Below, one piece after another: positions 29,912 to 57,045 of a stretch of 64,000 nucleotides of DNA; position 1 is the stretch's first letter; the number at the start of each line of letters is the position of its first letter. Location of the stretch: NCBI RefSeq assembly GCF_045037415.1, contig NZ_CP173438.1; one strand, written 5' to 3'. The notes beneath the pieces were generated by a model. The model was not told the DNA's origin. It saw nothing but the letters and a program-made list of their open reading frames with translations, and did no database searches. Source of the stretch: Escherichia coli (GTDB lineage: Bacteria > Pseudomonadota > Gammaproteobacteria > Enterobacterales > Enterobacteriaceae). A program made the translations under genes and the position numbers.

Positions 29912-30721
<810 letters not shown>

Positions 30722-30901
30722 TTATCTGCGGATTTGTCACATAAAAAGAGCATGATCACATTTGGAATACCTGTGCGATAAACCACACATTGCCACGGTT
30801 ATTCTGCTTACACATTCACACAATGGCACTCTTTTGGTTCTCGCAAACATTGTTCAGGGAATATACTGATGATAAATATAAATGCATTCAATGGATGATG
30901 A

Positions 30902-32722
30902 ATGAAAATATCGTGGAATTATATATTTAAGAACAAATGGCGATTTCACATTACAAGCATTTCACTTTTTCTTATCATGCTCGCGGTTTCAATCGCTTTT
31001 TTGCACTTGCGTTTTAATACCTTGTCCGGTACCGATAAAATGCGGCTTGAAATGTATAAGTCCACATTATATTCCACCATCGAGCAATTTTATGTTTTAC
31101 CCTATATGCTCTCAACAGACCATATCATCCGTCAGGCGGTAATTACGCCTGACGATATGACGTCCAGCGAACTCAATCAACGAATTGCACATTTCAATAC
31201 TCAACTCAAAACCGCAGCAATATTTATTCTGGATACCCAAGGTAAGGCCATCGCTTCTAGTAACTGGCAGGACCCCGGCAGCTATGTAGGGCAAAATTAT
31301 AGCTATCGCCCCTATTATAAACACGCCATGTCTGGCTTAAATGGACGCTTTTACGGTATTGGTAGCACTACGAATACACCGGGATTCTTCCTCTCTACAA
31401 GTATAAAAGATAAAGGAAAAATTGTCGGTGTTGTAGTAGTAAAAATAAGTCTTAATGAAATTGAAAAAGCATGGGCCGAAGGTCCTGAAAATATTATCGT
31501 GAATGATGAACATGGGATTATATTTTTAAGTTCAAAATCGCCATGGCGAATGCGAACACTGCAACCGTTACCTGTTCAGGCAAAACAAAAACTACAATCT
31601 ACCCGCCAATATAGTCTCGACAATCTTTTACCGGCGGATTATTATCCCTGTTATACCGTGAGCAATTTTACTTTCCTGAAAGATAAAAAAGAACAACTCT
31701 GTTTATTCCCGCAATATTATACGCAACAAATAGCCATTCCAGAATTTAACTGGAAAATGACAATTATGGTCCCCTTAGATAACCTGTACTGGTCATGGGC
31801 TATTTCGTTAGTCATTACACTAATTATTTACCTGCTGTTTTTGTTATTTATTAAATACTGGAGAATGCGATCTCATGCACAACAATTATTAACACTGGCG
31901 AATGAAACATTAGAAAAACAGGTTAAAGAGCGTACATCTGCCCTGGAATTGATCAATCAAAAATTAATACAGGAGATAAAAGAGCGCAGTCAGGCTGAAC
32001 AAGTATTACAAATTACGCGTAGTGAACTGGCAGAGTCCAGCAAACTGGCGGCGCTTGGACAGATGGCAACCGAAATTGCCCATGAACAAAATCAACCGTT
32101 AGCCGCCATTCACGCACTTACTGATAACGCGCGTACTATGCTAAAAAAAGAGATGTATCCACAGGTTGAACAGAATCTGAAACACATTATTTCCGTGATT
32201 GAGCGGATGACGCAGCTCATTTCCGAACTTAAAGCATTTGCCTCGCGCCATCGCGTACCTAAAGGTTCTGCCGATGTCATCAAAGTGATGTATAGCGCCG
32301 TGGCGTTACTTAATCACAGCATGGAGAAAAATAACATTGAGCGACGAATAAAAGCCCCATCCATGCCGTTATTTGTCAATTGCGATGAACTCGGTCTTGA
32401 ACAGATATTCAGTAATTTAATTAGCAACGCCTTAGATTCTATGGAAGGTAGCTCTTACAAACGACTGGATATCGCCATTCGCCAGGCAAATAACAAAGTT
32501 ATTATTACCATTAAAGACAGCGGTGGCGGTTTTGCACCTGAAGTTGTCGATCGCATATTTGAACCATTTTTTACCACTAAACGTAGAGGAATGGGGTTGG
32601 GACTGGCAATAGTCAGCGAAATTGTCCGAAATTCGAACGGCGCACTCCACGCCAGTAATCATCCTGAAGGCGGCGCAGTAATGACATTAACCTGGCCTGA
32701 ATGGGGAGAAAAACATGAATAA
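30902..32722 (+). CDS. kguS: Sensor histidine kinase, likely KguS of the alpha-ketoglutarate island
   Basis: 606-aa ORF with N-terminal TM, periplasmic domain, second TM, and HisKA/HATPase region (ATEIAHEQNQPLAAI H-box, DSGGGF, GMGLGLA). Confidence 0.7.
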   Translation: MKISWNYIFKNKWRFHITSISLFLIMLAVSIAFLHLRFNTLSGTDKMRLEMYKSTLYSTIEQFYVLPYMLSTDHIIRQAVITPDDMTSSELNQRIAHFNTQLKTAAIFILDTQGKAIASSNWQDPGSYVGQNYSYRPYYKHAMSGLNGRFYGIGSTTNTPGFFLSTSIKDKGKIVGVVVVKISLNEIEKAWAEGPENIIVNDEHGIIFLSSKSPWRMRTLQPLPVQAKQKLQSTRQYSLDNLLPADYYPCYTVSNFTFLKDKKEQLCLFPQYYTQQIAIPEFNWKMTIMVPLDNLYWSWAISLVITLIIYLLFLLFIKYWRMRSHAQQLLTLANETLEKQVKERTSALELINQKLIQEIKERSQAEQVLQITRSELAESSKLAALGQMATEIAHEQNQPLAAIHALTDNARTMLKKEMYPQVEQNLKHIISVIERMTQLISELKAFASRHRVPKGSADVIKVMYSAVALLNHSMEKNNIERRIKAPSMPLFVNCDELGLEQIFSNLISNALDSMEGSSYKRLDIAIRQANNKVIITIKDSGGGFAPEVVDRIFEPFFTTKRRGMGLGLAIVSEIVRNSNGALHASNHPEGGAVMTLTWPEWGEKHE

Positions 32723-34073
32723 TAAATTCAGTGAAATTACTATAGTTTATATTGAGGATAGTGACGATGTACGTTTTGCCTGTGAACAAACGCTCACGCT
32801 GGCTGGTTATCGCGTTATTTCCTGTTGCGATGCAGAACACAGTATTCCCCTTATTCAAAGTCAGGCCAACATTATTATACTGACCGATGTCAGGTTACCT
32901 GGAATATCAGGACTAGAGCTCCTCAGTTACATCAACGAAATGGATAGCAAAATTCCGGTTATTTTAATTACCGGACACGGTGACGTGGAAATGGCGGTGG
33001 ATGCCATGCGTAATGGTGCATTCGATTTCATTGAGAAACCAAGTAGCTCAGATAAATTATTGAGTATTATTGCCAGAGCGGTAGAAAAACGGCGATTGGT
33101 TTTAGAAAATCAGCAATTACTGGCGAATCTGCAACAGGAAAATGGCCCGGTGCTGATTGGTCGTAGTCCGCAGATGCAGCAACTGCGTAAAATGATCCTT
33201 AATGTCGCAGATACCGGTGCCGATGTCCTTATTTATGGTGAAACAGGTTGTGGTAAAGAAGTCGTCGCCAGAATGCTGCATCACTGGAGTACCCGCCGTC
33301 AGGGGCAGTTTGTTGCCTTAAACTGTGCAGGCTTACCAGAAACGTTGTTTGAAAGCGAAATATTTGGTCATGAGGCGGGCGCATTTACCGGTGCGGTTAA
33401 AAAGCGTATTGGAAAAATTGAACATGCAAATGGTGGTACGTTATTTCTCGATGAAATAGAGGGAATGCCATCAGGAATGCAGGTAAAACTGCTACGTGTA
33501 TTGCAGGAAAGAACCATTGAACGATTAGGTGCCAATCAATTAATTCCGGTGAATTGCCGTGTTATTGCAGCGACCAAGGAAGATTTACTGCGTCGCAGCG
33601 AAGAACATCTGTTTCGTCTCGATCTCTATTATCGTCTGAATGTGGTTAGCCTGAATATTCCACCTCTACGCCAGCGACGAGAAGATATCCCTGAACTGTT
33701 TTACTGGTTCGCCAGTCAGGCGGCACAAAAATATAATCGTCCTCTGCCTGATATTTCTCCCATGTTACTGGCCTGGTTGCAGTCACAAAGTTGGCCTGGC
33801 AATGTACGTGAACTTAAACACAATGCAGAGCGTTTTGTTCTCGGTTTACTGACCCACCACCAGCCAGTGCCAATGACTCAGCAAGAAGAGAGTGGTCTTA
33901 CCGCCTGCATTGATGCTTTCGAGAAAAAGTTAATCGAAGATATGCTGCGACAAACGGAAGGCCAGGTCAGTTTGACAGCGCGGCTATTACAGCTGCCGCG
34001 CAAGACTTTATATGACAAACTCAACAAACATCAGATTCAACCGCAAGTTTATCGACCAGAATCATCCAGCTAA
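32715..34073 (+). CDS. kguR: Sigma-54-dependent response regulator (NtrC family), likely KguR
   Basis: Receiver domain, AAA+ sigma-54 activation domain (GETGCGKE Walker A, GAFTGA motif in EAGAFTGAVKK), C-terminal HTH; 8-bp overlap with kinase gene. Confidence 0.8.
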   Translation: MNNKFSEITIVYIEDSDDVRFACEQTLTLAGYRVISCCDAEHSIPLIQSQANIIILTDVRLPGISGLELLSYINEMDSKIPVILITGHGDVEMAVDAMRNGAFDFIEKPSSSDKLLSIIARAVEKRRLVLENQQLLANLQQENGPVLIGRSPQMQQLRKMILNVADTGADVLIYGETGCGKEVVARMLHHWSTRRQGQFVALNCAGLPETLFESEIFGHEAGAFTGAVKKRIGKIEHANGGTLFLDEIEGMPSGMQVKLLRVLQERTIERLGANQLIPVNCRVIAATKEDLLRRSEEHLFRLDLYYRLNVVSLNIPPLRQRREDIPELFYWFASQAAQKYNRPLPDISPMLLAWLQSQSWPGNVRELKHNAERFVLGLLTHHQPVPMTQQEESGLTACIDAFEKKLIEDMLRQTEGQVSLTARLLQLPRKTLYDKLNKHQIQPQVYRPESSS

Positions 34074-35135
34074 TGCTGATTCCTGAGGATGTAACCCCAA
34101 ATCGATACCTTTGCGGGCGTAATGTTCAACTACCCAGGACCAGAATGATACCGGGATCGTAATCATCTTCGCATTGCGTTCCCGGTTGGCAGCTTCTGGC
34201 ATACCGGGGTAAATCACCGGATTGCCGCCAGGTTGAGGCTGCGTAGCTAACAGATAATCCGCAAAGAACTGCCCTTTCTCCCCTGCCAGATCGGTGAATT
34301 GATCAGGATCGATAATCAACGCAAAAAGATGATTATGCGCAGATCCATCCGTCTGATGATCTTCGGCGATCGTGTCACCACCAGATAAGATCCCCGCCAT
34401 CATTTCAATCATCAGTGCCAGGCCAAATCCTTTATGCTCACCAAATGGCAGTAACGCCCCTGGAGGATTGCTGAATAACACCCCAGGATCATTGCTTGGA
34501 TTCCCCTGTGCATCAATCAATTGTCCCGGCGCGGCCTGCTTCCCGGTGGACGACATTACCCGTGCTTTATTTAGCGCCATGCTACTGGTGGCAAAATCAA
34601 CCAGAATCGGCGGACGCCCATCACTGAACGGCCAGGCAAAGCAGAAAGGGTTAGTGGTCATACGCGGTTCCGCACCGCCCCACGGGGCGACCAGTGCAGG
34701 ACGCCCGGTGACGTTACTCATGGCCAGCATCGCCAGGCCTTGATCAGCAACCATTTGCCCGTAATGCCCCATACGCCCTAAATGATGCGCATGGCACAAC
34801 GTTAACAGGCAAAAACCGCGGTGTTTTGTTTGTTCGATGGCAGCATTTACCGCCACTTTTCCGGCGTGTTGACCAAAGCCATTGTGGGCATGAAAACGCT
34901 GTAAATTACCTTCACTTGTTAAGCATTCCGGGCGGGCATTCGCGGTTACATCGCCACGAGCGATATTTTCCAGATATTTCGGTAGCAGCGTGACGCCGTG
35001 GCTGGCAAAGCCATAACGTTCCGCTTCAATCATATGTTCCGCCACATCCTGAGCGATATCGGCATCACAGCCATTAAGTTCCAGCAGCCCGGCAGCTAAC
35101 CAACGCACTTTTTCAACAGCAATTTGTAATGACAT
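34062..35135 (-). CDS. Ldh_2-family (malate/L-lactate/sulfolactate dehydrogenase-like) oxidoreductase
   Basis: Start set at MSLQIAVEKV (357 aa) with SD GAGGAAAC upstream; sequence pattern of the Ldh_2 family; last gene of the transporter unit. Confidence 0.65.
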   Translation of the reverse strand: MSLQIAVEKVRWLAAGLLELNGCDADIAQDVAEHMIEAERYGFASHGVTLLPKYLENIARGDVTANARPECLTSEGNLQRFHAHNGFGQHAGKVAVNAAIEQTKHRGFCLLTLCHAHHLGRMGHYGQMVADQGLAMLAMSNVTGRPALVAPWGGAEPRMTTNPFCFAWPFSDGRPPILVDFATSSMALNKARVMSSTGKQAAPGQLIDAQGNPSNDPGVLFSNPPGALLPFGEHKGFGLALMIEMMAGILSGGDTIAEDHQTDGSAHNHLFALIIDPDQFTDLAGEKGQFFADYLLATQPQPGGNPVIYPGMPEAANRERNAKMITIPVSFWSWVVEHYARKGIDLGLHPQESALAG

Positions 35136-35146
35136 CGTTGGTTTCC

Positions 35147-36646
35147 TCACATTAGACCTAAAATTTTCCACCAGGTGGCGGCAAACAGTAGCAACAACAG
35201 GTAGCCGATTACCGTCAGGTACAGTCCCACACGGGTAAACTGGCGTGGCGTGAAGGTATCCGTACCCATACACACCATATTTTGTGGCGCGTTAATCGGC
35301 AGGATGAAGCCAAAACTGACACTGAAGGCGAGCAGAATGGTCATGCCGACCGGGTTAACGCCGAGTTCTGGCGGCAGACTGCTTAACAGGCTAATCAGGA
35401 TGGGCAGCAATGCGGCAGTTAGCGCAGTGGCACTGGCAAACCCCAGGTGAATGATTATCAAGAAAGCGGCGAGAATCGCGAAGATGGCAAGTGATGGTAA
35501 ACCGTCAAGACCAAAACCTTTCACCACATAGTTCGCCATCCATGAAGCTGCCTGTGTATCAAGCAACGTGGACCCCAGGCTGATACCAATACCAAACATC
35601 AGCAACGTGCCCCACTGCACACGTTTTTCGACCTCTTTCCAGCTCATTACACCGATGCCTGGCAGCAACATAATCGCCAGTCCGGCAAGGGTGACAGAGG
35701 TGGTATCAATACTGTGTAATTTTCCGCCAGTAGACCAAAAGAGCAGTAACAACAGCGAAATACCGATCAAGCGTTTTTCTTTACCGGTGGTTGGCCCTAA
35801 CTCTGCGAGTGCTTTTTTAATGGCCTCGCTCCCCCCTTCAACAGCTTCCGTTTCTGGCGGCAACAATTTACGTGCGAGGAAATAGAGGATCACCGACATG
35901 GTGAGGCTCCAGGGCGCGCCCGCTAACAGCCAGTCAAGCCAGCTGACAGAATGCCCGGCGCCGAAAGTTTTATTGATAAAACCGATAGAAAGCAGGTTTT
36001 GCGCCGACGAAGTTTGAATACCAACGTTCCAGATACTGGTCGCCTGGGCGATAACAATCATCATTGACGCCGCTAAACGTGAATGTTTATCCACCTTAAA
36101 TGCCGCAATGACCCCCATCATAATCGGCACCACGCAAGCCGTACGGGCAGTGGCACTGGGTACGACCAGGCTCAGGACGATGGTCACCACAATGGCACCG
36201 ATAATAATGCTGCGGCTACTGGCACCTATTTTCGACATAGTAAACAGCGCAATACGTTTATCCAGCCCGGTAATGGTCATTGCCGCCGCGATAAACATTG
36301 CTGCTGCCACCAGCGCCAGAGCAGAATTAGAAAAACCCGACAGAGTCATTTTCAGCGCTTTCGCGGTGCCAAGGATCGTGTCCGGGTGATTCATATCCGG
36401 GGCAAAACCAACCATAAAGATAATCAGTGCGGAAATAACAATTGCACTGGCGGTGTAATCCATCGCTTCGCTGATCCAGACAATAATGGCAAACACCAGA
36501 ATGGCGATCATATTTTGTCCGGCGACGGGCAAGGTATCGCCCAGAGGCAGAAGAGTAATAATAATTCCGGCAATGATCGCCAACCACAGGCCGGGATTAG
36601 GGATAATTCGACGCTTTTGTGGTGCGCCATGTGATATTGATGACAT
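35147..36646 (-). CDS. Anion permease (DASS/SLC13-like), candidate 2-oxoglutarate/dicarboxylate importer
   Basis: ~499-aa polytopic protein with internal duplicated hydrophobic halves; start at ATG 36646 with SD GAGGTG. Confidence 0.65.
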   Translation of the reverse strand: MSSISHGAPQKRRIIPNPGLWLAIIAGIIITLLPLGDTLPVAGQNMIAILVFAIIVWISEAMDYTASAIVISALIIFMVGFAPDMNHPDTILGTAKALKMTLSGFSNSALALVAAAMFIAAAMTITGLDKRIALFTMSKIGASSRSIIIGAIVVTIVLSLVVPSATARTACVVPIMMGVIAAFKVDKHSRLAASMMIVIAQATSIWNVGIQTSSAQNLLSIGFINKTFGAGHSVSWLDWLLAGAPWSLTMSVILYFLARKLLPPETEAVEGGSEAIKKALAELGPTTGKEKRLIGISLLLLLFWSTGGKLHSIDTTSVTLAGLAIMLLPGIGVMSWKEVEKRVQWGTLLMFGIGISLGSTLLDTQAASWMANYVVKGFGLDGLPSLAIFAILAAFLIIIHLGFASATALTAALLPILISLLSSLPPELGVNPVGMTILLAFSVSFGFILPINAPQNMVCMGTDTFTPRQFTRVGLYLTVIGYLLLLLFAATWWKILGLM

Positions 36647-36686
36647 ATTCACCTCATTGTGAAAAATAAAAAACCTGCCTGGCTAT

Positions 36687-36702
36687 TGCAGGAGCTATGC
36701 CA
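36687..36702 (-). promoter_or_regulatory. Candidate sigma-54 (-24/-12) promoter for the transporter/Ldh_2 unit
   Basis: Minus strand reads TGGCAT-AGCTC-CTGCA (GG-N10-GC spacing) ~40 bp upstream of the permease start. Confidence 0.45.
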
Positions 36703-36815
36703 TCTTTAATTTTTTAATAATGCTTTGTTATTTAATGATTTTATTATTTATTCTTTTTATTTTGTGCGCGGTTTTCCGCACAGTAAATAAAAGGTGATTC
36801 TCTTACCACACAGAT

Positions 36816-36839
36816 AAAAAAAGGGAGCGATATGCTCCC
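36816..36839 (-). terminator. Rho-independent terminator downstream of the sucD-like gene
   Basis: Minus strand: hairpin gggagc-atatc-gctccc followed by an 8-T run. Confidence 0.6.
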
Positions 36840-36857
36840 TTGATATTCATTTATGGA

Positions 36858-37730
36858 TTACTTAATAACATTCCATAACGTTTCGCCAAGCAACGCCGGG
36901 TTTCTTGTCCATGCCATGCCTGCTTTATCGAACGCACGGAATTTATCCTCTGCACTGCCGCTACCGCCAGAAATAATGGCTCCGGCGTGTCCCATGCGTT
37001 TTCCTTTTGGTGCAGTAACACCGGCAATATAACCTACGACCGGTTTATTCATATCATGGCGAATAAATTCCGCGGCCCGTTCTTCCGCATTACCACCAAT
37101 TTCACCGATCATAATTACCGCGTCTGTTTGCGGATCATTTTCGAATAAACGCAGCGCATCAATAAAGTTAGTCCCCGGAACCGGATCGCCGCCAATACCA
37201 ATACAGGTGGATTGCCCAAGTCCCAGCGCCGTGGTTTGCGCTACAGCTTCGTAGGTTAATGTACCGGAGCGGGAAACAATCCCAATACGCCCTGGGCGGT
37301 GGATTTCACCAGGCATAATCCCGATTTTGCACTCACCCGGCGTGATAACTCCTGGGCAGTTTGGCCCAATCAGCCGCACATCCGGGTGGCAGTCAAGCAG
37401 CCGACGAACTTTCACCATATCCAGTGTCGGTACACCTTCAGTGATCACCACAACCAATTTGACGCCAGCTTCAATAGCCTCAACAACAGAATCCAGCACA
37501 AACGGTGCAGGCACATAAATCACGCTGGCATCGGCCTCAGTTTGTCGCATCGCATCTTTCATTGAATCAAAAACCGGGCGATCCAGATGCCGTTGCCCGC
37601 CCTTACCAGGCGTCACTCCACCCACAATCTGCGTGCCATACGCAATAGCCTGCTCTGTATGAAATGTGCCGTTTTTGCCGGTAATGCCCTGCACCAGTAC
37701 CCGCGTGTGTTTGTTGATCAAAACGCTCAT
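36858..37730 (-). CDS. Succinyl-CoA synthetase alpha subunit paralogue
   Basis: 290-aa [36 protein letters not shown] with CoA-binding and phosphohistidine-loop pattern of SucD. Confidence 0.88.
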
Positions 37731-37742
37731 CTTAACCTCCTG

Positions 37743-38912
37743 TTAATTCAGTAACGCAATGATGCGTTTCGCGGCATCATCCAGAGAATCGACGGCTTCC
37801 ACCGTCAGACCACTTTCTGCCAGTAACCGCTGCCCTTCGGCGGCGTTATTACCGGAGAGACGCACCACGACAGGCAGGGTGATGCTGGCCTCATTCAGAG
37901 CATGAATAATGGCTCTGGCGATCATGTCGCAACGGACAATCCCACCAAAAATATTAACCAGAATGGCTTTCACTTTGCTGTCGGAAACAATCAGCCGAAA
38001 GGCTTCACTGACGCGCTCCTGGGTTGCGCCACCGCCAACATCCAGGAAGTTTGCGGGTTGTTCACCGTATAGCTTGATGATGTCCATGGTTGCCATAGCC
38101 AGCCCTGCACCATTGACCATGCAGCCGATATTTCCGTCCAGCGAGACATAATTAAGATCAAGCTTCGCTGCCTGGCTTTCGCGTGGATCTTCCTGGGTTT
38201 CATCACGTAGCACCTGGAGTTCCGGGTGACGATACAGCGCGTTATCATCCAGCGATACTTTCGCGTCTGCACACATAAATTCGCCCGTTTCCCGCAACAC
38301 CAGAGGGTTAATTTCCAGCAGGGCAAAATCCAGTTCGTTAAAGGCTTTCCACGCCTGATTAACCAGGCGACTAAAGGCAGCAAATAGTCCGTGTTCCAGT
38401 TGCAGAACAGCAAACATTTCGCGGATATGGCAAGGCTGCACGCCTGTCAGTGGATCAATGCTGACACTGCTGATTTTCTCCGGTGTCTCATGGGCGACTT
38501 TTTCAATTTCCACACCACCTTCCGGGCTGACAATAAACGTGACCCGCTGGCTTTCACGATCCACCACCATGCCAAAATAGAGTTCCTGGCGTACCGGATA
38601 AATGTTTTCGCACAGTAAAATACTGCTGACATACTGTCCTTCTGGCCCGGTCTGATAAGTCACCAGTTGCGATCCCAACATTTGCTGTACAAAAGCCTGT
38701 GCTTCCGGCAGCTGCTTAAGCACTTTTACGCCGCCAGCTTTACCGCGCCCACCAGCATGTACCTGCGCTTTAAGTACCGCGCCTTTACTCGGGCAAGCAA
38801 TATGTTGCCAGGCATCTGCCAGTTGCGAAATCTGTTGGATAGCTATCTCTTTTGGACACGGCATCCCCATGCCAGCCAGTAACGATTTGGCCTGATACTC
38901 ATGTAAATTCAT
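37743..38912 (-). CDS. Succinyl-CoA synthetase beta subunit paralogue
   Basis: 389-aa ORF MNLHEYQAKSLLAGMGMP, ATP-grasp SucC-like. Confidence 0.88.
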   Translation of the reverse strand: MNLHEYQAKSLLAGMGMPCPKEIAIQQISQLADAWQHIACPSKGAVLKAQVHAGGRGKAGGVKVLKQLPEAQAFVQQMLGSQLVTYQTGPEGQYVSSILLCENIYPVRQELYFGMVVDRESQRVTFIVSPEGGVEIEKVAHETPEKISSVSIDPLTGVQPCHIREMFAVLQLEHGLFAAFSRLVNQAWKAFNELDFALLEINPLVLRETGEFMCADAKVSLDDNALYRHPELQVLRDETQEDPRESQAAKLDLNYVSLDGNIGCMVNGAGLAMATMDIIKLYGEQPANFLDVGGGATQERVSEAFRLIVSDSKVKAILVNIFGGIVRCDMIARAIIHALNEASITLPVVVRLSGNNAAEGQRLLAESGLTVEAVDSLDDAAKRIIALLN

Positions 38913-38933
38913 ATATTCCCTCAGTGGTGTGTG

Positions 38934-40352
38934 TTATCCGTGTAATGCTTTATTATTCAAGGCCATTGCTGCTTCGTGGATGACTTCGCTTAATGTCGGA
39001 TGCGCATGGATCGCACAGGCAATATCCTCGCCAGAGGCGCTAAAAGTCATCGCCAGCGCAATTTCATTAATCAGCTCCGATGCCTGCGGGCCAACAATCG
39101 CTCCGCCAAGTACGCGGTCAGTGTGTTTATCACTGTATAACGTGCAACGCCCACCTTCCTGGCCTAATGCTAAGGCGCGACCGTTACCGGCAAACAGAGA
39201 ATTTCCTTTGTTAAAGACTCTGCCAGCGGCTTTCAGTGAGGCCTCGTTTTCCCCTACCCACGCAACTTCCGGTTGGGTGTAAATCACCGAAGGGATCAGC
39301 GCAAAATTAATCGGCTCTACCACCAGTCCGGCAATTTGATCAGCCACCACTACACCTTCAGCCATCGCTTTATGCGCCAGCATCGGCCCTCGCACGACAT
39401 CACCAATTGCCCACAGCCCGGCTTTCCCGGTACGGCATAAGTTATCGACGGCAATACCGCCACGGTTATCGGCTTCAAGACCGAGTTGCACGAGATCGAC
39501 ACCAGAAAGTCGCGGTACACGTCCAATGGCAAGAATTAATTTATCGAAGCGGCTTTCTTCTCGCTTCTCACCCTGCCGCCAGCGCACATGCACACCGTCA
39601 TCCCGTTGTTCAATAGCCTCAATCTCTACTGCCAGTTGCATTTTCATCCCACTGGCAATCATTGCTTTACGGACTTCGTTCGACAGGCGAGCTTCCAGTG
39701 CAGGCAAGAACGTTGGCGCCATCTCCAGCAACGTGACGTCTGAACCAACCCGATTCCACACAGACCCCAGTTCAAGGCCAATCACGCCAGCGCCGATCAC
39801 ACCGAGACGCGGCGGCACTTCGCTCAATGCCAGGGCGCCACGATTGTCGAGGATCTGTTGATTATCAATGGTAACGCCAGGCAGCTGACGCGGCTGAGAA
39901 CCTGTTGCAATCACTACATTACGGGCGTGAAGGTGTTGATCGTTTACACGTAATTGCCAAATCTCATCCTGAGCACATTCTAACGTTGCGAGGCCGCACA
40001 GGTGCTTCACTTTATTTTTCTTAAACAGCAAGCTGATGCCCATTGTCAGGCGGCTTACTATGGCGTCTTTACGTTGAATCATCGCAGCTGCATTGAAAGA
40101 TACGCCGTCAACATTAACGCCATGAATGCTCGCCTCATGCTGCACTTGCGCGTACAGTTCGGAAGATTGCAGCAACGATTTTGACGGAATACAGCCGACA
40201 TTGAGACACGTACCGCCCGGCGAAGGTTCGCCCTGTGCATTAACACCATCATCAATACATACTACGGAAAGCCCATTCTGCGCAGCCCGCAGTGCCGCTA
40301 CGTAACCACCTGGCCCCCCCCCCATAACTGCCACATCAAAAATTGTACTCAT
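38934..40352 (-). CDS. Dihydrolipoyl dehydrogenase (E3) paralogue
   Basis: 472-aa ORF with FAD fold GGGPGGYVAA and redox-active disulfide GGTCLNVGCIPSK. Confidence 0.88.
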   Translation of the reverse strand: MSTIFDVAVMGGGPGGYVAALRAAQNGLSVVCIDDGVNAQGEPSPGGTCLNVGCIPSKSLLQSSELYAQVQHEASIHGVNVDGVSFNAAAMIQRKDAIVSRLTMGISLLFKKNKVKHLCGLATLECAQDEIWQLRVNDQHLHARNVVIATGSQPRQLPGVTIDNQQILDNRGALALSEVPPRLGVIGAGVIGLELGSVWNRVGSDVTLLEMAPTFLPALEARLSNEVRKAMIASGMKMQLAVEIEAIEQRDDGVHVRWRQGEKREESRFDKLILAIGRVPRLSGVDLVQLGLEADNRGGIAVDNLCRTGKAGLWAIGDVVRGPMLAHKAMAEGVVVADQIAGLVVEPINFALIPSVIYTQPEVAWVGENEASLKAAGRVFNKGNSLFAGNGRALALGQEGGRCTLYSDKHTDRVLGGAIVGPQASELINEIALAMTFSASGEDIACAIHAHPTLSEVIHEAAMALNNKALHG

Positions 40353-40363
40353 CGGCGCCCTCC

Positions 40364-41518
40364 TTAAAGATCCAGCAACAGTTGTTCCGGTGATTCCAGT
40401 AGCTCACGTATTGCCACCAATGTATGCACGGCTTCCTGACCATCGATAATGCGATGGTCATAGCTGAGAGCAAGGTACATCATGGGACGAATAACAACCT
40501 GACCGTTTTCTGCGACCGGGCGCGGCGTGATGGCATGCATCCCAAGAATGGCCGACTGCGGCGGGTTAATGATTGGCGTTGACATCATCGAACCAAAAGT
40601 ACCGCCGTTGGTGATAGAGAACGTGCCGCCCTGTAACGCCTCCAGCGGCAATTTGCCATTGCGTGCCTGTGTGGCGTATTCGGCAATTTGCCGTTCAATT
40701 TCCACCAAAGAGAGTGATTGCGCATTGCGTAACACAGGCACTACCAGGCCGCGGTTGCTGCTCACTGCAATGCCGATATCGCAATAATCACGCCAGATAA
40801 TCTCGTTGCCATCGACGCTGGCATTCACTACAGGGAAGCGCTCCAGCGCCCGGGTAACGGCCTTAACAAAGAAGGACATAAAGCCCAGCTTCACGCCGTG
40901 CTTCTCGGCAAAACGATCTTTCCAGCGGGCGCGTAAGTCCATCACGCTCTGCATGTTTACTTCGTTGAATGTGGTAAGAATGGCGTTATTTTGTTGGGAA
41001 GCCAGCAGACGCTCAGCAATTCGCTGACGTAAGCGCGACATCGGCTCACGACGTTCCTGACGAGCACCCGGTGTCAAGGGTTTAGCTGGCGCGATCTCCG
41101 CCACCCGTTCAGGCTGAATGGCTGGTGCAGGAGTAACGCGCTGCACATCCTCTTTCAGGATACGTCCATTTCTCCCGCTCCCCGCAACGTCAGCAAGTTC
41201 GACACCACTACGCTGTGCCTCCAGCCGTGCGGAAGGCATCGCCAGGGTTTCGGTGACTGGTGTGACGGTTTCTTCTATGACAGCTTGCGGCTTAAGATGC
41301 GCCAACAGTTGCGCGGACGTGACCGTGCTACCTTCGCTGACGATAATATTGCTTAACACGCCATCGTGCGGGGCCGGTATTTCCAGAATGACTTTATCGG
41401 TTTCCAGCTCGGCAATCACATCATCGCGTTTTACGTGCTCGCCTTCTTGTTTACACCAGGTTGTCAGCGTGCCTTCCGTGACAGATTCCGGTAATACAGG
41501 GACAGTAATTTCGATCAT
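40364..41518 (-). CDS. Dihydrolipoamide succinyltransferase (E2) paralogue
   Basis: 384-aa ORF with N-terminal lipoyl domain (ETDKV lipoyl-lysine motif) and C-terminal catalytic motif DHRIIDG. Confidence 0.88.
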
Positions 41519-41550
41519 AAAATGTTCTCCTTATTATTTTTGTGCGCCTT

Positions 41551-44295
41551 TCATGGCTGAATATCTGCAAACGCAGCAGCAAGAAATTCGTCGATTTGTT
41601 GTTTATGTACACGCCCATACCCTGTCGCTGGTGCTGCCGCTGCCGGGCGGCCTGCATACTGCCAGTAAGGAGTGTTAATTTTCAGTGCCGCCAGCTCATG
41701 ACGAATCTGCCGCCACGCGCCCTGGTTTTCTGGCTCTTCCTGCAACCAAATCCATTCGCAGCAGTTCGGCCAACTCGCCAGAACATCATTCAGTTCTGCG
41801 ACCGGGAACGGGTAGAGTTGCTCCAGGCGAACAATCGCTACCTCGTCTTCATGCTCACGCTGCTTACGGGCTTCCAGTACGTCGTAATAGACCTGGCCGC
41901 TACACAAAATAACGCGCTTAACTTTCTGGGACTGATGCAATTGCGGATCGGTGATTACCGGTTTATAAGCGTCATCAGTGAATTCACAAAGCTCGCTCAT
42001 CGCGCCTTTAAACCGAAGTAAACGCTTACTCATCATTATCACTAACGGTTTGCGCATTGGGCGTAATGCCTGACCGCGCAACAAATGGAACATTTGTGCT
42101 GACTCACTGGGCATCACCACCTGCATGTTGTTTTCTGCGCACAGTTGCAGCCAGCGCTCAGGACGTGCGGAAGAGTGCTCCGGCCCTTGTCCGTCATAGC
42201 CATGCGGCAGAAGAATGGTTAAACCGCTATAGCGATCCCACTTGGTTTCGCCAGACGAGATAAATTGGTCAATAGCAACCTGAGCGCCGTTGGCAAAGTC
42301 ACCAAACTGTGCTTCCCAAATAACCAGTTGCTGAGGCGCAGACGTTGAATAGCCATATTCAAAGGCTAAGAGCGCTTCTTCATTAAGCACCGAATCATAA
42401 ACATCGAAAGATGCCTGACCAGCGCGGATATGCTGTAACGGCAGATAACGACGGGCTTCCGTTTGATGATGTACCACTGCATGGCGATGACTGAACGTGC
42501 CACGCCCTGAGTCTTCACCAGAAAGACGCACACCAACACCCGCATCCACAAGCGATGCATAGGCCAGCATTTCAGCCATTCCCCAGTCTACTGGCTGAGT
42601 ACCTGCGGCCATATCCTGGCGTAACGCCAGTTGCCGTTTAATGGTAGGATGTGCGACCACATCGGGTGGCAGTGTAGAAATGATTTCACCATACGCTGCC
42701 AGCTTTTGCCGAGGCAATGCCGTAGATACCGGGGCGCTCCAGTGAGGGTTGGTCAACCCATACCAGTTAGCGCTAAAAGAGTGAATTGCAGGTTTGAGAG
42801 GCTGCGGTTCACGTTTCTGGCAGCTATCCAGCCAGTCGCGATAGCGTGCCGTCATCTCATCTTGTTGCGCCTGAGTTAACAGGCCGCGGCGGGCAAGAGA
42901 TTCACCATAACGGGCGAGCGTACCAGGGTGAGCATCCACTGCCTGATACATTTGTGGCTGGGTAAGACGTGGCTCATCGCTTTCGTTGTGTCCGTGCTTA
43001 CGGAAGCAGCAAATATCGATGATGATGTCACGCCGGAAGGTGTCTCGCCATTCGCACGCCAGTTCCATTACCTGGCAAACAGCGTCAACGTCATCGCCAT
43101 TAACGTGGATAATTGGGGCCGCTACCATTTTGGCAATATCGGTGCAGTACCGTGAAGAACGCATATCCTGCAAGCGGGAAGTGGTGAAGCCAATCTGATT
43201 GTTAATCACCAGATGTAGCGTACCGCCAGTGCCGTAGCCCTGAGTCTGCGATAAGTTAAACGTGGTTTGGTTGACGCCGAGGCCGCCCAACGCGGAATCC
43301 CCATGAATAAGTACGCCCACCACTTTTGCCTGACCATCCTCACCACGGCGTTCCTGCCTGGCTCGCACCTGGCCCAGCACCACCGGATTCACGATCTCCA
43401 GATGTGAGGGGTTATACGCCAGCGCCACATGCAGCGAACCGGCAGGTGTTTCCAGATTGCTGGAATACCCCATGTGGTATTTCACATCGCCTGAACCACT
43501 GCCGATCGTCTGCTTGCCTTCAAACTCAGCAAAAAGCTGTGCCGGGTCTTTATTCAACAGATTAACCAGAACATTAAGTCTTCCCCGGTGCGCCATGCCA
43601 ATGACCATTTCCTCCACACCTTGCGCACGCAGGCGTTTTGTCAGCGTATCGAGCGCCGGGATTGCACTTTCGCCCCCTTCCAGAGAAAACCGTTTCTGCC
43701 CAACATAACGGGTATGCAGATAACGCTCTAACGTCTCTGCCGCCATCAGTTTTTCAAAACGAGCAATACAGGTTTGGGCATCAGCTTGTGGCGCATTGCT
43801 GCTCTCAATCCGTGATAACAACCAGTTGATTTCTTCACGATTTTCCAGATGAGCAAGTTCATAAGCCTGGCTACTGGCCCAGGCTTGCTCCAGCAGGTTA
43901 AGCAGTTGCTTAAGTGGCATTTGCGTGGTGTGTGCGCCAAAGGTGACGCTAAACTCCTGCAACAAGTCTTCTTCGCTTAATCCCCAAAAACCAGGCTGGA
44001 GGGAGGGAACGTCAGCCGGGGGATTCAAACCAAGTGGATCAAGCTTTGCGCGCAGATGCCCCTGCGTGCGCCAGGCATTGATCAGTTGTATTACCGCAGC
44101 CTGTTTTTTTAAGGTCGCACCGCTGATATTGTTATCACCGGATACGCTTTGGACAGTCAGTTCAGGTGAAAGAAAAAAACGCCGCCAGTCTTCCGGGAGT
44201 TGTTCCGGCGTACGCAACCAGGTCTGGTAGTACTCTTCAAGCCAGGTCGCGTTATCTCCACTAAGCAGCGTGCCGGGCGAGGTCATGTTCTCCAT
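41551..44295 (-). CDS. 2-Oxoglutarate dehydrogenase E1 component paralogue
   Basis: Long ORF with E1o/TPP-binding similarity; start placed at ATG 44295 (MENMTSPG, SD AGGAG 6 nt upstream) rather than the ORF-track start 44418. Confidence 0.85.
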   Translation of the reverse strand: MENMTSPGTLLSGDNATWLEEYYQTWLRTPEQLPEDWRRFFLSPELTVQSVSGDNNISGATLKKQAAVIQLINAWRTQGHLRAKLDPLGLNPPADVPSLQPGFWGLSEEDLLQEFSVTFGAHTTQMPLKQLLNLLEQAWASSQAYELAHLENREEINWLLSRIESSNAPQADAQTCIARFEKLMAAETLERYLHTRYVGQKRFSLEGGESAIPALDTLTKRLRAQGVEEMVIGMAHRGRLNVLVNLLNKDPAQLFAEFEGKQTIGSGSGDVKYHMGYSSNLETPAGSLHVALAYNPSHLEIVNPVVLGQVRARQERRGEDGQAKVVGVLIHGDSALGGLGVNQTTFNLSQTQGYGTGGTLHLVINNQIGFTTSRLQDMRSSRYCTDIAKMVAAPIIHVNGDDVDAVCQVMELACEWRDTFRRDIIIDICCFRKHGHNESDEPRLTQPQMYQAVDAHPGTLARYGESLARRGLLTQAQQDEMTARYRDWLDSCQKREPQPLKPAIHSFSANWYGLTNPHWSAPVSTALPRQKLAAYGEIISTLPPDVVAHPTIKRQLALRQDMAAGTQPVDWGMAEMLAYASLVDAGVGVRLSGEDSGRGTFSHRHAVVHHQTEARRYLPLQHIRAGQASFDVYDSVLNEEALLAFEYGYSTSAPQQLVIWEAQFGDFANGAQVAIDQFISSGETKWDRYSGLTILLPHGYDGQGPEHSSARPERWLQLCAENNMQVVMPSESAQMFHLLRGQALRPMRKPLVIMMSKRLLRFKGAMSELCEFTDDAYKPVITDPQLHQSQKVKRVILCSGQVYYDVLEARKQREHEDEVAIVRLEQLYPFPVAELNDVLASWPNCCEWIWLQEEPENQGAWRQIRHELAALKINTPYWQYAGRPAAAAPATGYGRVHKQQIDEFLAAAFADIQP

Positions 44296-44330
44296 GTTTT
44301 TCTCCTGATGGTCATAGACAGCTGCATTAC

Positions 44331-44346
44331 TGCACAATCCGTACCA
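44331..44346 (-). promoter_or_regulatory. Candidate sigma-54 (-24/-12) promoter for the 2-oxoglutarate dehydrogenase / succinyl-CoA synthetase operon
   Basis: Minus strand reads TGGTAC-GGATT-GTGCA with GG-N10-GC spacing, ~36 bp upstream of the proposed E1 start. Confidence 0.45.
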
Positions 44347-44476
44347 ACAGTTAAAAACACTAATTTTCAAAAACTTATAGAAAAGAGATGATGTAAAAGT
44401 GGGCGAAAAAAGGGACAAAATAGTAGGGAGTGGCTGGAGTCAGGAACAGGCGGAGAGATCCGCCTGTTGATTAAAA

Positions 44477-45670
44477 TCACATCACCGCAGCAAACGCCTT
44501 TGCCACGCGATGCACATTTTGCGTGTTAAGCCCGGCGACACACATGCGACCGCTGGCGATGAGATAGACACCAAATTCTTCACGTAGTTGGTCAACCTGA
44601 GCGGCACTTAAACCGGTATAACTGAACATGCCGCGCTGATTAAGCAGATAATCGAAATTGCGTTCTGGCATCTCTGTGCTCAATACCTTCACCAGTTCCT
44701 GACGCATTGCCAGAATGCGAGTTCGCATCTCTTCTACTTCCACCAGCCAGCTGGCTTTCAATGCCTCGTCATTCAGCACCGCAGCCACCACCTGCGCACC
44801 AAAATTCGGCGGGCTGGAGTAGTTGCGGCGAACAGTTGCTTTCAATTGCCCCAGTACGCGGCCTGCGGCTTCGGCATCTTCACACAGAACAGAAAGTCCG
44901 CCGACGCGCTCGCCGTAAAGGGAGAAAATTTTCGAGAACGAATTGCTCACCAGAGCGGGTAATCCAGCGCTGGCAATGGCGCGAATGGCGTAGGCATCCT
45001 CTTCCATACCGGCACCAAATCCTTGATAGGCAATATCAAGAAATGGGATAAGCTCACGGGCTTTGAGAATTTCAATCACCGCATCCCACTGCTCATTAGT
45101 GAGATCGGCACCCGTTGGGTTGTGGCAACATGGATGCAGCAACACAATACTGCGGGCAGGTAATGTTTTCAGCGTCGCCAACAGGTCATTAAAGCGCACG
45201 CCGTTAGTCGCTTCGTCATACCAGGGGTAAGTACTTACTTCGAATCCAGCCCCGGCGAATATTGCTACGTGGTTTTCCCAGGTAGGATCGCTGACCCAGA
45301 CGCTTGATTCCGGGAAGTAGCGTTTCAGGAAATCTGCGCCCACTTTCAATGCCCCTGAGCCGCCAAGGGTTTGAATGGTTGCTACGCGCTGTTGTTGCAG
45401 TACCGGATGGTCCGCACCAAACAGCAGCGGCGCAATGGCATGGCGATAGCTGTTAAGCCCTTCCATCGGTAAATAAAGCGAAGCACCATGAGGCTGCGCA
45501 TTCAGGCGCGCTTCCGCATCCGCCACGGCTTTCAGTTGTGGAATAATTCCGTCTTCGTTGTAGTACAGACCGATACTTAAATTCACTTTGTCGCTGCGAG
45601 GGTCTTCTTTAAAACGCTCCATAAGCGTAAGAATCGGGTCGCCAGCGTAGGCGTCAACTTTTTGAAACAC
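44477..45670 (-). CDS. tyrB: Aromatic-amino-acid aminotransferase
   Basis: 397-aa protein from GTG at 45670 ([36 protein letters not shown]). Confidence 0.95.
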
Positions 45671-45751
45671 GCGATGGTTCTCCAGGTTTACGGGCAGGTG
45701 GTTAAACCACAATAAACCGGAAGAAGGCGAAGATCGAGAGGATGTTCAAAG

Positions 45752-46780
45752 TCAGTCGGGAAGTTGGCGAAGAATTTGCTCCACTCGCTCTTGCAGTGGC
45801 CCCGAAACCGAAAGATAAGGAATGTTCCTGCGCGACAATTCCTGTTCATACCACACCTGTTGCCGTGCGCGAAATACCTCTCCTTGCCGGGTGCCATCCT
45901 GCACGAAGGGAAATTCTGCGCCGCAAAGCACTACCAGAGAGTATTCCCGCTCCGCCAGTTGGTGAAGTTCTTGCGGAGCATGACCATATTGATCAAGGGC
46001 ATAGAATAAGGTCGTGAGTGGCGACGTGTCACATATAAGATAGTGATTAGCTTCTGCTTGTTGTTCCCGGCGTACCTGTTCGCAGGCGATATGCAACAAA
46101 TCATCCGCAGTTAAGATACCGTTTTTTTCTTCCCAATAGTCGCGGCCAAATTCAGCGACATACACCGTATCAAGCACGCCCGCCAGCGCTTTTGAAAGCG
46201 TGCTTTTACCGGTAGATTCGCCACCAAGCAGACAGATACGGCGAACGAAACTGTAATAAACATCATTCGCCAACATGTAGCGATAGCGGTGAACATCGGA
46301 ACGAATAAGCGTTCCCGAAGGCGCTTCATCGCCAACTGGGCGCGCCATTCGAACGTGTTCAACGGGTTGGGCAAAACGCCGCGCCAGCACGTTAGCAAAG
46401 CCATCGCCATAGTCTTCTGCAGTAAATACAGCGTGTGGGCGGCAACGTAATATCTGCAAGCATAGCGTCGCCACATAATGACGGTGGATGTCGGCATCAG
46501 CATTGTTATGCGGGATAGCAGGTAAGTTATAACGCGCAACAAGCTCTGGCGTCAGTACCAAAAACGTCGCTTGCGGGAAGCGCACTTGCAGCCACGTCAG
46601 GCGCTTTTCAGGTTCACAGTCAGGCATTTCCGGCACGGAATAACTGATGATGAACAGTTCTTCACATTGCGCCAGTGCGGTATTGATCAACTTTTCATGA
46701 CCACAATGCAAAGGCGCGAATTTACCAACCACCAGACCCGTTGCAAAAGGCTTCATGATGTTTGCAACTCTTTGCGCCAT
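45752..46780 (-). CDS. NadR-like bifunctional NMN adenylyltransferase / ribosylnicotinamide kinase (no N-terminal HTH)
   Basis: Nucleotidyltransferase motif GKFAPLHCGHEKLI near N-terminus and P-loop GGESTGKSTL in the C-terminal half; alternative coupled start at 46756 (ATGA overlap with pnuC-like stop). Confidence 0.7.
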   Translation of the reverse strand: MAQRVANIMKPFATGLVVGKFAPLHCGHEKLINTALAQCEELFIISYSVPEMPDCEPEKRLTWLQVRFPQATFLVLTPELVARYNLPAIPHNNADADIHRHYVATLCLQILRCRPHAVFTAEDYGDGFANVLARRFAQPVEHVRMARPVGDEAPSGTLIRSDVHRYRYMLANDVYYSFVRRICLLGGESTGKSTLSKALAGVLDTVYVAEFGRDYWEEKNGILTADDLLHIACEQVRREQQAEANHYLICDTSPLTTLFYALDQYGHAPQELHQLAEREYSLVVLCGAEFPFVQDGTRQGEVFRARQQVWYEQELSRRNIPYLSVSGPLQERVEQILRQLPD

Positions 46781-47310
46781 TGATACAAACCATACCAGGC
46801 GTTAATCCAGAACAGGAAATATAAGCCAGCGGTCAGGTTTAAACCGCGCGTCATATACAGTGGCACCGCCAGGGTATTCACCGCTAACCAGACGTACCAG
46901 TTTTCGATACGTCTTCCCATCAACATGAATTGTGCCAGAACGCTGAAGGTCAAAATCAACGAATCCAGCCAGGGTGCCCAAGCATTGGTAAAGGTGTGGA
47001 GTAAAAAGCCGTAACCGCCTGCCACGACGACAGCACAGAGCAACAAAAGGAAAAAGTGACTGGCTTGCGTTCGGCGCACCGGCAAGATGTCGCCACCCTG
47101 ACCTTTCAGCCAGTGGATCCAGCCAGTGATGCTGGTCACGATGAAGAATAACTGGAGCGTAACGTCGGCATAGAGTTGCACGGACCAAAAAACCCAGCCG
47201 TACAATATGCTGCCAATTATGCCGATCCACCATGTATGCACATTGTTTCTGGCAGCCAGCCAGACGGAAACCGCGTATGCCAGACACGCGGCGATTTCTG
47301 AATAAGACAT
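46753..47310 (-). CDS. PnuC-family nicotinamide riboside transporter
   Basis: 185-aa polytopic ORF with tryptophan-rich PnuC-like segments; directly upstream of and overlapping the NadR-like gene. Confidence 0.7.
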   Translation of the reverse strand: MSYSEIAACLAYAVSVWLAARNNVHTWWIGIIGSILYGWVFWSVQLYADVTLQLFFIVTSITGWIHWLKGQGGDILPVRRTQASHFFLLLLCAVVVAGGYGFLLHTFTNAWAPWLDSLILTFSVLAQFMLMGRRIENWYVWLAVNTLAVPLYMTRGLNLTAGLYFLFWINAWYGLYQWRKELQTS

Positions 47311-47332
47311 TGTCCCTCCCTGGAGACGAATA

Positions 47333-49880: not shown

Positions 49881-49952
49881 AACGAATGGTGTTACCTGCT
49901 GTTGAATGGGGGACAAGAGAGTATAGCGAGAAACAGTTTCTCGCTACAGCAT

Positions 49953-50987
49953 TTAACGCCCCCGCTTTCCGGTGGAAGCGCGAATTTGCAGGGTCGGGCG
50001 ATAGATGTAATGGCTGAGCGGTGCGTCTGGTTGCGCAATACGCCGTAAAATTTGCTGCGCCGCCTGTTTCCCCAGAGCCAATGGTTCTACCGCAATTGTG
50101 GTTAACGGCGGGTTACTGTAAGCACAAGCCGCCACGCCATCATTACCAATCAACGAAATATCTTCCCCGGCAAATAATCCTCTTTCGCCTAGTGCCGACT
50201 CCGCGCCAAAAGCCATTAAATCGTTATAACAAATCACCGCTGTGGGTGGCGAAGGCATATCCAACAGCTGTTGCATCAACTGGTAGCCGTTGGCCTGAGT
50301 CGGTTCAGCACGCAGCGAAAAAGCATCAGTACTCCACGGCTGTAAACCATGGTGATTCATCGCCTCAAGGTATCCCTGATAACGCATATGGTGCGTAAGA
50401 CCACCAATAAACACGATATCTCTGTGCCCTTGTTGAATGAGATATTCCGTCGCTTCCCGTACACCTGCGTGGCTGTCCACGCCAACGTAATCGACGGGCA
50501 ATTGTTGCCAATCCAGAGGGCGCATCGTGATTAATAAGGGTGTGGAACTGTTGGCATAACGCTGTAAATCGGCTTCTGAGGTACTGTTCACTGGACAGAG
50601 GACAATGCCCGCGACGTGGTGTTCCAGCAAGGTATCAAGCACCTGTTTTTGCCGGTCACTACGCTGGGAGGTATTGGACATCACGGTGATAAAACCGTGC
50701 TCCGCCAGCGTCATCTCAAGACCCATAGTAAATTCAGCGAAGAAAGGATTTATCAAATCGTCAATGACTACGCCGATAGTTAGCGATTTTTGCGAACGCA
50801 GATTGGCAGCAAAACGGTTATAGACATAGCCTAATTGTTCAATGGCTTGCTGGACTTTTTGTTGCGTCTCTTTTTTGATAAGTGAACTGTCGTTGAGAAC
50901 CAGCGATACAGTCGATTTCGAAACGCCAGCCGCACGCGCAACATCGGTTAATGTTACCCGCTTTCTTCCTGTATCCGACTTCGCCAT
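49953..50987 (-). CDS. LacI-family transcriptional regulator
   Basis: Start at MAKSDTGRKRVTLTDVARAAGVSKSTVSLVLN (HTH), then periplasmic-binding-protein-like sugar-binding fold; divergent from the adjacent operon. Confidence 0.85.
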   Translation of the reverse strand: MAKSDTGRKRVTLTDVARAAGVSKSTVSLVLNDSSLIKKETQQKVQQAIEQLGYVYNRFAANLRSQKSLTIGVVIDDLINPFFAEFTMGLEMTLAEHGFITVMSNTSQRSDRQKQVLDTLLEHHVAGIVLCPVNSTSEADLQRYANSSTPLLITMRPLDWQQLPVDYVGVDSHAGVREATEYLIQQGHRDIVFIGGLTHHMRYQGYLEAMNHHGLQPWSTDAFSLRAEPTQANGYQLMQQLLDMPSPPTAVICYNDLMAFGAESALGERGLFAGEDISLIGNDGVAACAYSNPPLTTIAVEPLALGKQAAQQILRRIAQPDAPLSHYIYRPTLQIRASTGKRGR

Positions 50988-51242
50988 GCCTGCTCCAAAC
51001 CCCCATAAGATCAAGGCAATTACTTTATCATAATCTCCTTTTACTCATGCGATCCGTTAACGCAAGGGATCGCAGGAGATCGTCGTTTCGATCACAGATT
51101 CGCACTTCCCTTGTTGTGTTTTTTACACCCTAATCGTACAAATTACGCATAAATTAGATCGTTCCAATTAATTTATGAAAATTATCATATTGTTTTAAAT
51201 GTATATTTTTAATTATTTTTATATCGAAACAAGGAAATTATT

Positions 51243-53586: not shown

Positions 53587-53612
53587 TCGCCTCTTACAAG
53601 GAAAGAAAGATA

Positions 53613-54893: not shown

Positions 54894-54903
54894 GTGGGAC
54901 GCA

Positions 54904-56940: not shown

Positions 56941-57045
56941 TCAGAGATATTCCGGGTTGTGACCGCAGCCCGGAAAAAATCCCCGCGCGGCCTGGCGACT
57001 ACTGTTAGGCTTAAAACAGATATGTCGCTCAGTAAAGGAGTTTAA

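Follow-up and report, generated by a model that had tools for sequence, protein, structure and literature searches.

The dihydrolipoyl dehydrogenase gene of the KguS/KguR α-ketoglutarate utilisation island of Escherichia coli

The operon and the island between tyrB and aphA

The window, i.e., the whole stretch of 64,000 nucleotides of E. coli DNA that was analysed, carries on its minus strand genes for the E1 and E2 components of a 2-oxoglutarate dehydrogenase (OGDH), for a dihydrolipoyl dehydrogenase (E3) and for the two subunits of succinyl-CoA synthetase (Table 1). The order E1-E2-E3-sucC-sucD, with an lpd gene between E2 and sucC, had been read from the sequence alone, and it is confirmed by the open reading frames and by the equivalog scores, which exceed the respective cut-offs for all five enzymes. 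Consecutive genes are separated by 32, 11, 21, and 12 nt, so that E3 follows the E2 gene after 11 nt and precedes sucC by 21 nt. The terminator after sucD is the sole strong intrinsic terminator for the E1-sucD genes, and no σ70-like site that might act as an internal promoter for E3 was found near the 11-nt gap between E2 and E3. The contrast that the sequence-only reading drew with the housekeeping genes also stands: in K-12, sucA, sucB, sucC, and sucD are contiguous without an lpd gene, and lpd comes after aceF. The E. coli lpdA gene has its own promoter, and LpdA is common to PDH, OGDH, and the glycine cleavage system.

Table 1. Coordinates in the window of the genes, promoters, KguR sites, and terminator of the island
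Feature	Position	Strand	Details
KguR autoregulatory site upstream of kguS	30772-30789	minus	TGTGTGGTTTATCGCACA; identical to site in PMC8716947
KguS, sensor histidine kinase (= c5041)	30902-32722	plus	profile matches; 99.7% identity to CFT073
KguR, σ54-dependent response regulator (= c5040)	32715-34073	plus	NtrC/AtoC-type σ54-activator models, below cut-offs; 99.8% identity to CFT073
Ldh_2-family oxidoreductase (= c5039)	34062-35135	minus	best NCBIfam NF007504, 276.8 bits, below cut-off 336
DASS-family anion symporter (= c5038, anaerobic α-ketoglutarate importer)	35147-36646	minus	TIGR00785, 242 bits (cut-off 198.6); function from PMC5318444
σ54 promoter of c5038	36687-36702	minus	TGGCATagctcCTGCA; sequence read; RpoN dependence and binding published (PMC5318444)
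KguR binding site upstream of c5038	36763-36782	minus	TGTGCGGAAAACCGCGCACA; identical to site in PMC8716947
Intrinsic terminator closing the E1-sucD operon	36821-36841	minus	AAGGGAGC-loop-GCTCCCTT, then TTTTTTT
Succinyl-CoA synthetase α subunit, sucD (= c5037)	36858-37730	minus	NF004230, 469 bits (cut-off 336)
Succinyl-CoA synthetase β subunit, sucC (= c5036)	37743-38912	minus	NF001913, 532 bits (cut-off 370)
E3, dihydrolipoyl dehydrogenase (= CFT073 c5035)	38934-40352	minus	ATG start, 472 aa, intact ORF; TIGR01350
E2o, dihydrolipoyllysine succinyltransferase (= c5034)	40364-41518	minus	384 aa; NF004309, 552 bits (cut-off 449)
E1o, 2-oxoglutarate dehydrogenase E1 (= c5032)	41551-44295	minus	914 aa from annotated ATG; NF006914, 1212 bits (cut-off 764)
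σ54-type -24/-12 element, putative promoter of the E1 operon	44331-44346	minus	TGGTACggattGTGCA; 51 nt before E1 start codon; read from upstream region
KguR-consensus match, candidate upstream activating site of the E1 operon	44520-44544	minus	inside tyrB 3' end

The whole island E3 protein scores 479 bits with the TIGR01350 model 'dihydrolipoyl dehydrogenase', the equivalog cut-off of which is 408.8, and its RefSeq label in an identical genome is lpdA. The redox-active disulfide C49-C54 (CLNVGC), the His-Glu dyad of H451 and E456 (HAHPTLSE), and the FAD and NAD(H) motifs GGGPGG and GAGVIGLE (GxGxxG) are invariant in an alignment of E3s. LpdA (b0116) is of the same family and has the same chemistry, with the catalytic Cys pair and the His-Glu dyad conserved. 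NAD+-dependent oxidation of dihydrolipoamide is a predicted activity of the island protein, and the authors working on strain CFT073 still call the complex 'putative'.

The partner subunits carry the features expected of an OGDH. Residues H236 and H274 of the island E1 are the conserved equivalents of His260 and His298 in SucA, which position the distal carboxylate of 2-oxoglutarate, and the island E2 has an E3-binding domain along with the lipoyl-lysine motif ETDKV and the catalytic motif DHRIIDG (DHRxxDG). When the island proteins are compared with their housekeeping counterparts in K-12, the identities are 50.3% for E1 and SucA, 53.8% for E2 and SucB, 56% for the two SucC proteins, and 40.6% for E3 and LpdA, the last being the most divergent of these pairs.

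The genes lie in a 13,712-bp (13.7-kb) insertion at 30764-44475, which in the alignment to K-12 is found between tyrB and aphA in place of 966 bp of K-12 DNA that include yjbS. This insertion bears out the label 'island' that the sequence-only reading had used, as does its distribution: of 5426 complete E. coli genomes, 1045 have the E1-sucD block in identical or almost identical form, whereas the housekeeping lpdA gene, downstream of aceEF, is found by megablast once per genome in 5424 of the 5426. The block has 1047 matches in all, of which one is on a plasmid record and not on a chromosome, and another has an identity in the 80-90% band.

The same island has been described as c5032-c5041 of uropathogenic strain CFT073, where it likewise occupies the tyrB-aphA interval (Cai et al. 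2013, PMC3694859). From alr/tyrB to aphA the window and CFT073 are collinear over 18 kb with 98.9% nucleotide identity, and they have the same nine-gene island at the same tyrB-aphA site, with the same KguR sites and σ54 elements. The nine island proteins are 97.9-99.8% identical to their c5032-c5041 counterparts, and the published order is kept. The E3 gene is the same gene as c5035, and the two differ only as alleles, with 97.9% amino acid identity. Between the two strains E3 is nevertheless the most diverged of the island genes (2.1% at the nucleotide level, vs 0.4-1.6% for the others), and of its 10 amino acid changes 9 fall within residues 107-178, a surface segment that is weakly conserved also between genera. 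Pseudogenisation, with the raised divergence as a sign of decay, is rejected in view of the intact reading frame and of the location of the substitutions in this poorly conserved segment.

Beyond the E1-sucD operon, the island encodes the symporter, the Ldh_2-family oxidoreductase, and the two regulators listed in Table 1. The gene for the oxidoreductase, c5039, accompanies the module in all five genera in which the module was found, and its best model is the malate/lactate/ureidoglycolate dehydrogenase PRK10098; its function is listed as unknown in PMC3694859. As a matter of speculation, the enzyme might reduce a 2-oxoacid and thereby re-oxidise the NADH formed by the island OGDH. The G+C content of positions 30001-34000, which are mostly kguS and kguR, is 41-45%, compared with 49-53% in the metabolic genes of the island. 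The difference may reflect a composite origin, even though the synteny of the nine genes extends to other genera. Compared with K-12, the neighbourhood contains two more insertions, both of them shared with CFT073. The first, at 45749-47331, stands in the tyrB-alr interval in place of 174 bp of K-12 and carries pnuC and the gene for an AAA-family (NadR-like) ATPase. The second (49897-57045) measures 7.1 kb, against 67 bp at the same place in K-12, between dnaB and qorA, and by the CFT073 annotation it encodes a LacI-type regulator, an acyl-CoA:acetate/3-ketoacid CoA-transferase, an enoyl-CoA hydratase, an MFS transporter, and an FAD-dependent oxidoreductase.

Promoters, KguR sites, and regulation

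The position and the core of the σ54-type element upstream of E1 are kept in Citrobacter koseri (TGGTATggatgCTGCA) and in Gibbsiella (TGGTATgaattCTGCA), and the element is the predicted promoter of the E1 operon; dependence on RpoN (σ54) has been demonstrated for the c5038 promoter only (PMC5318444). With one mismatch allowed, a search with the σ54 consensus gave as many hits overall as chance would and did not pick up the two island promoters, which deviate from the consensus at two positions each. The island elements were found by reading the upstream regions, and their conservation supported them.

The consensus for KguR binding is TGTGYG-N5-15-CRCRCA (PMC8716947), and it has 6 matches in the window when 1.6 are expected. 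These matches define three loci, all beside operons of the island, and two of the loci are the published sites upstream of c5038 and kguS. The remaining match, in the 3' end of tyrB, lies about 175 nt upstream of the -24/-12 element of E1. The window and CFT073 both have it, whereas K-12 tyrB and the sequences preceding E1 in C. koseri and Gibbsiella do not; the C-terminus of TyrB is LNTANVQRV in K-12 vs LNTQNVHRV in the window. In PMC8716947 the site is listed as tyrB-associated. By its location it would be better placed as an upstream activating site of the E1 operon, a role that is tentative in view of its absence from K-12 and C. koseri.

Upstream of kguS, a plus-strand element at 30824-30839 has a perfect σ54 -24 box (TGGCAC) at the correct spacing from a poor -12 box (TGGT and not TTGC). 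The KguR autoregulatory site is 35 nt upstream of this element, which could be the promoter by which kguSR is autoregulated.

Much is known about how the island is controlled in CFT073. Its discovery went by way of a proteomic screen, in which C5035, i.e., the E3 protein itself, was the most strongly induced of all proteins, about 25-fold when KguR was constitutive or over-expressed (PMC3694859). The genes c5032-5037 form one operon by RT-PCR, which α-ketoglutarate induces and its analogues do not; expression of the operon rises more than 5-fold at low oxygen and is fully dependent on KguS/KguR (PMC3694859). In published work on the strain, KguS senses α-ketoglutarate, and KguR binds the promoter regions of c5032 and c5038 and activates both operons. 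In a kguR mutant, RNA-seq gave a mean log2 fold-change of -7.99 for the α-ketoglutarate utilisation genes kguS, c5032-c5037, and c5039 (PMC8716947). Without c5032-5037, growth on α-ketoglutarate is impaired anaerobically and not aerobically, and a strain deleted for c5032-5039 cannot grow anaerobically on α-ketoglutarate and colonises the urinary tract of mice less well (PMC3694859). The CFT073 authors regard the island as an anaerobic substitute for SucABCD.

Induction by α-ketoglutarate and by anaerobiosis, and the need for the operon in anaerobic growth on α-ketoglutarate, are assumed to apply likewise to the allele in the window, which is 99% identical to that of CFT073. The suggestion, made from the sequence alone, that the operon with its own E3 may be expressed under anaerobiosis agrees with what was shown for the same island in CFT073, where the operon is also needed under these conditions (PMC3694859, PMC8716947); own E3 and anaerobic expression were thus both known, from work of 2013-2021. 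The view of E3 as a dedicated member of a set holds as well, in that the gene is co-transcribed with its own E1, E2, and succinyl-CoA synthetase and is regulated apart from lpdA. The regulation of the island E3 is clearly distinct from that of housekeeping lpdA.

Relatives of the island E3 and the origin of the gene order

The closest relatives of the island E3 are found in Klebsiella indica, Citrobacter koseri, and Brenneria (77-79% identity), followed by those in Pectobacterium, Gibbsiella, and a Vibrio (60-63%). The nearest relatives with a housekeeping role belong to the Neisseriales (Laribacter, Aquitalea, and Neisseria) at 53-55%, and one relative with 55% identity (P0045) is a stand-alone lpd in a small genome, whose context is uninformative. 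Among solved structures, the island E3 scores 471 bits with 6aon, 427-432 bits with 5u8u, 1lpf, and 5tr3, 406 bits with 3lad, 357 bits with human E3, and 295 bits with 4jdr, which is E. coli LpdA. We take 6aon to be from a betaproteobacterium, 5u8u, 1lpf, and 5tr3 to be from Pseudomonas, and 3lad to be from Azotobacter. The E3 of E. coli itself hence ranks below Pseudomonas-type, plant, yeast, and human structures in likeness to the island E3. An origin as a recent duplicate of lpdA, the finding that would have spoken against the sequence-only reading, is ruled out: the two proteins are 40.6% identical and of different E3 subtypes, LpdA is far from being the nearest relative, and megablast with lpdA finds one place per genome.

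To see where the gene order comes from, consider Laribacter hongkongensis, in which the TCA cluster has the order sdhCDAB-gltA-sucA-sucB-(61-aa ORF)-lpd-sucC-sucD and an E3 that is 54% identical to the island E3. This Laribacter LpdA2 is of the same subtype and has the same position between E2 and sucC, and it shares with the island E3 an N-terminal insertion before the GGTCLNVGCIPSK motif. In Pseudomonas the order is likewise sucA-sucB-lpdG-sucC-sucD, and from the ranking of the structures, we take Pseudomonas LpdG and the Azotobacter E3 to be OGDH-linked E3s of the same type. The nine-gene module itself is found in C. koseri at the same tyrB-aphA site, in Gibbsiella quercinecans at another locus, in Pectobacterium aroidearum next to glnALG, and in Vibrio sp. 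Y2-5 in rearranged form, and E3 lies between E2 and sucC in every one of these copies. From the order in Laribacter and in the module copies follows that the 'own lpd' came to the island with a mobile catabolic block of five genes. The five genes would then have been passed on together from a donor lineage in which sucA-sucB-lpd-sucC-sucD is the normal order, which accounts for the position of E3 between E2 and sucC. At about 54% identity, E3s of the Neisseriales and of Burkholderiales type are the nearest housekeeping relatives of the island protein. The claim that an lpd gene of its own is a special feature of the island is accordingly not upheld. The order E1-E2-E3-sucC-sucD is ordinary outside Enterobacterales, and the lineage-specific peculiarity is the E. 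coli arrangement of sucABCD with a distant lpdA.

The island differs from such housekeeping clusters in its setting. The sucA-sucB-lpd-sucC-sucD clusters serve the core TCA cycle, are linked to sdh and gltA, and are found without KguSR, the DASS transporter, and the Ldh_2 gene, whereas the island copy of E3 is accessory, horizontally distributed, and inducible by α-ketoglutarate and anaerobiosis.

We are therefore highly confident that the island E3 is c5035, a subunit of the accessory 2-oxoglutarate dehydrogenase that belongs to the KguS/KguR α-ketoglutarate utilisation island of extra-intestinal pathogenic E. coli, and that it was inherited with the block and is not a copy of lpdA. By the features in Table 1, E1, E2, E3, sucC, and sucD would be transcribed as one mRNA, from the σ54 promoter 51 nt before E1 to the terminator after sucD. 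The products would convert imported α-ketoglutarate to succinyl-CoA, CO2, and NADH, and then succinyl-CoA to succinate with formation of ATP, and in this sequence of reactions the island E3 would re-oxidise the dihydrolipoyl arm of the island E2 with NAD+. That the island contributes to the fitness of pathogenic E. coli in the urinary tract, by anaerobic use of the abundant α-ketoglutarate of the host, has been established since 2013.

Possible reasons for a dedicated E3

Three readings of why the operon has a dedicated E3 remain, and they are non-exclusive: that E3 is a passenger, that LpdA is limiting or inhibited by NADH in the absence of oxygen, and that the island E2 and E3 fit each other.

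According to the first of these, E3 is kept only as part of the block, is interchangeable with LpdA, and has no specific property of its own. In favour of this reading, E3 subunits are commonly shared among complexes, and the gene order is ancestral; the higher allelic divergence of E3 within E. coli (2.1% at the nucleotide level, 10 amino acids) mildly suggests relaxed constraint. A dispensable passenger is, on the other hand, mildly at odds with the finding that five genera have kept E3 intact and in its position, with 60-79% identity and all catalytic motifs. The cluster of 3055 E3 member sequences has, moreover, a full-length representative, and variants with deletions in E3 are rare, each forming a singleton cluster on one or two contigs. 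We consider the passenger explanation possible but on the whole doubtful.

The second reading, which takes up the limiting LpdA of the sequence-only reading, assumes that under anaerobic conditions LpdA is either too scarce or inhibited by NADH, and that an island E3 that tolerates NADH makes anaerobic OGDH activity possible. Lpd is the component through which NADH inhibits the E. coli PDH, and the E354K change in Lpd restores anaerobic activity of the complex (review PMC7240943). The island E3 has Gln in the position of LpdA Glu354 (YTQPEVAWVG vs YTEPEVAWVG), and the island operon does work anaerobically, both of which would fit such tolerance. Across the E3 subtype, however, the column of Glu354 contains Q, H, D, S, or N, including in housekeeping enzymes of aerobes. 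From this follows that the Gln of the island protein carries no weight, since a residue other than Glu is the norm here and not an adaptation. Human E3, which has His at the position aligned with Glu354, is still inhibited by NADH, and this also counts against tolerance. The H322Y change in LpdA relieves inhibition by NADH, and in the pairwise alignment H322 is conserved in the island E3. A need for an own E3 that arises from scarce or inhibited LpdA is accordingly unlikely. The narrower proposition, that the island E3 is intrinsically tolerant to NADH and that this, besides transcriptional control, lets OGDH run in anaerobic E. coli, we regard as rather improbable. If it were true, c5035 alone, or c5035 swapped into PDH or OGDH, should confer anaerobic activity in the manner of the engineered Lpd E354K, and a naturally NADH-tolerant E3 would be of interest to metabolic engineers, who run PDH anaerobically with Lpd E354K.

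It is quite unlikely, finally, that the E3 is present for a structural need independent of redox physiology, in that a diverged E3-binding domain of the island E2 would recruit only the island E3: the linker and E3-binding region of this E2 are indeed shorter than those of SucB and poorly alignable with them, and the island E2 and E3 share a foreign lineage of origin, but E3-binding domains are generally promiscuous within a species.

Some of the rare E3 variants (P0020, P0021, P0024, P0025, and P0033), among them sequences from E. fergusonii and E. albertii, are chimeric or truncated forms in which E3 is joined to parts of SucC/SucD, E2, the DASS transporter, or the Ldh_2 enzyme, which suggests that internal deletions inactivate the island now and then.
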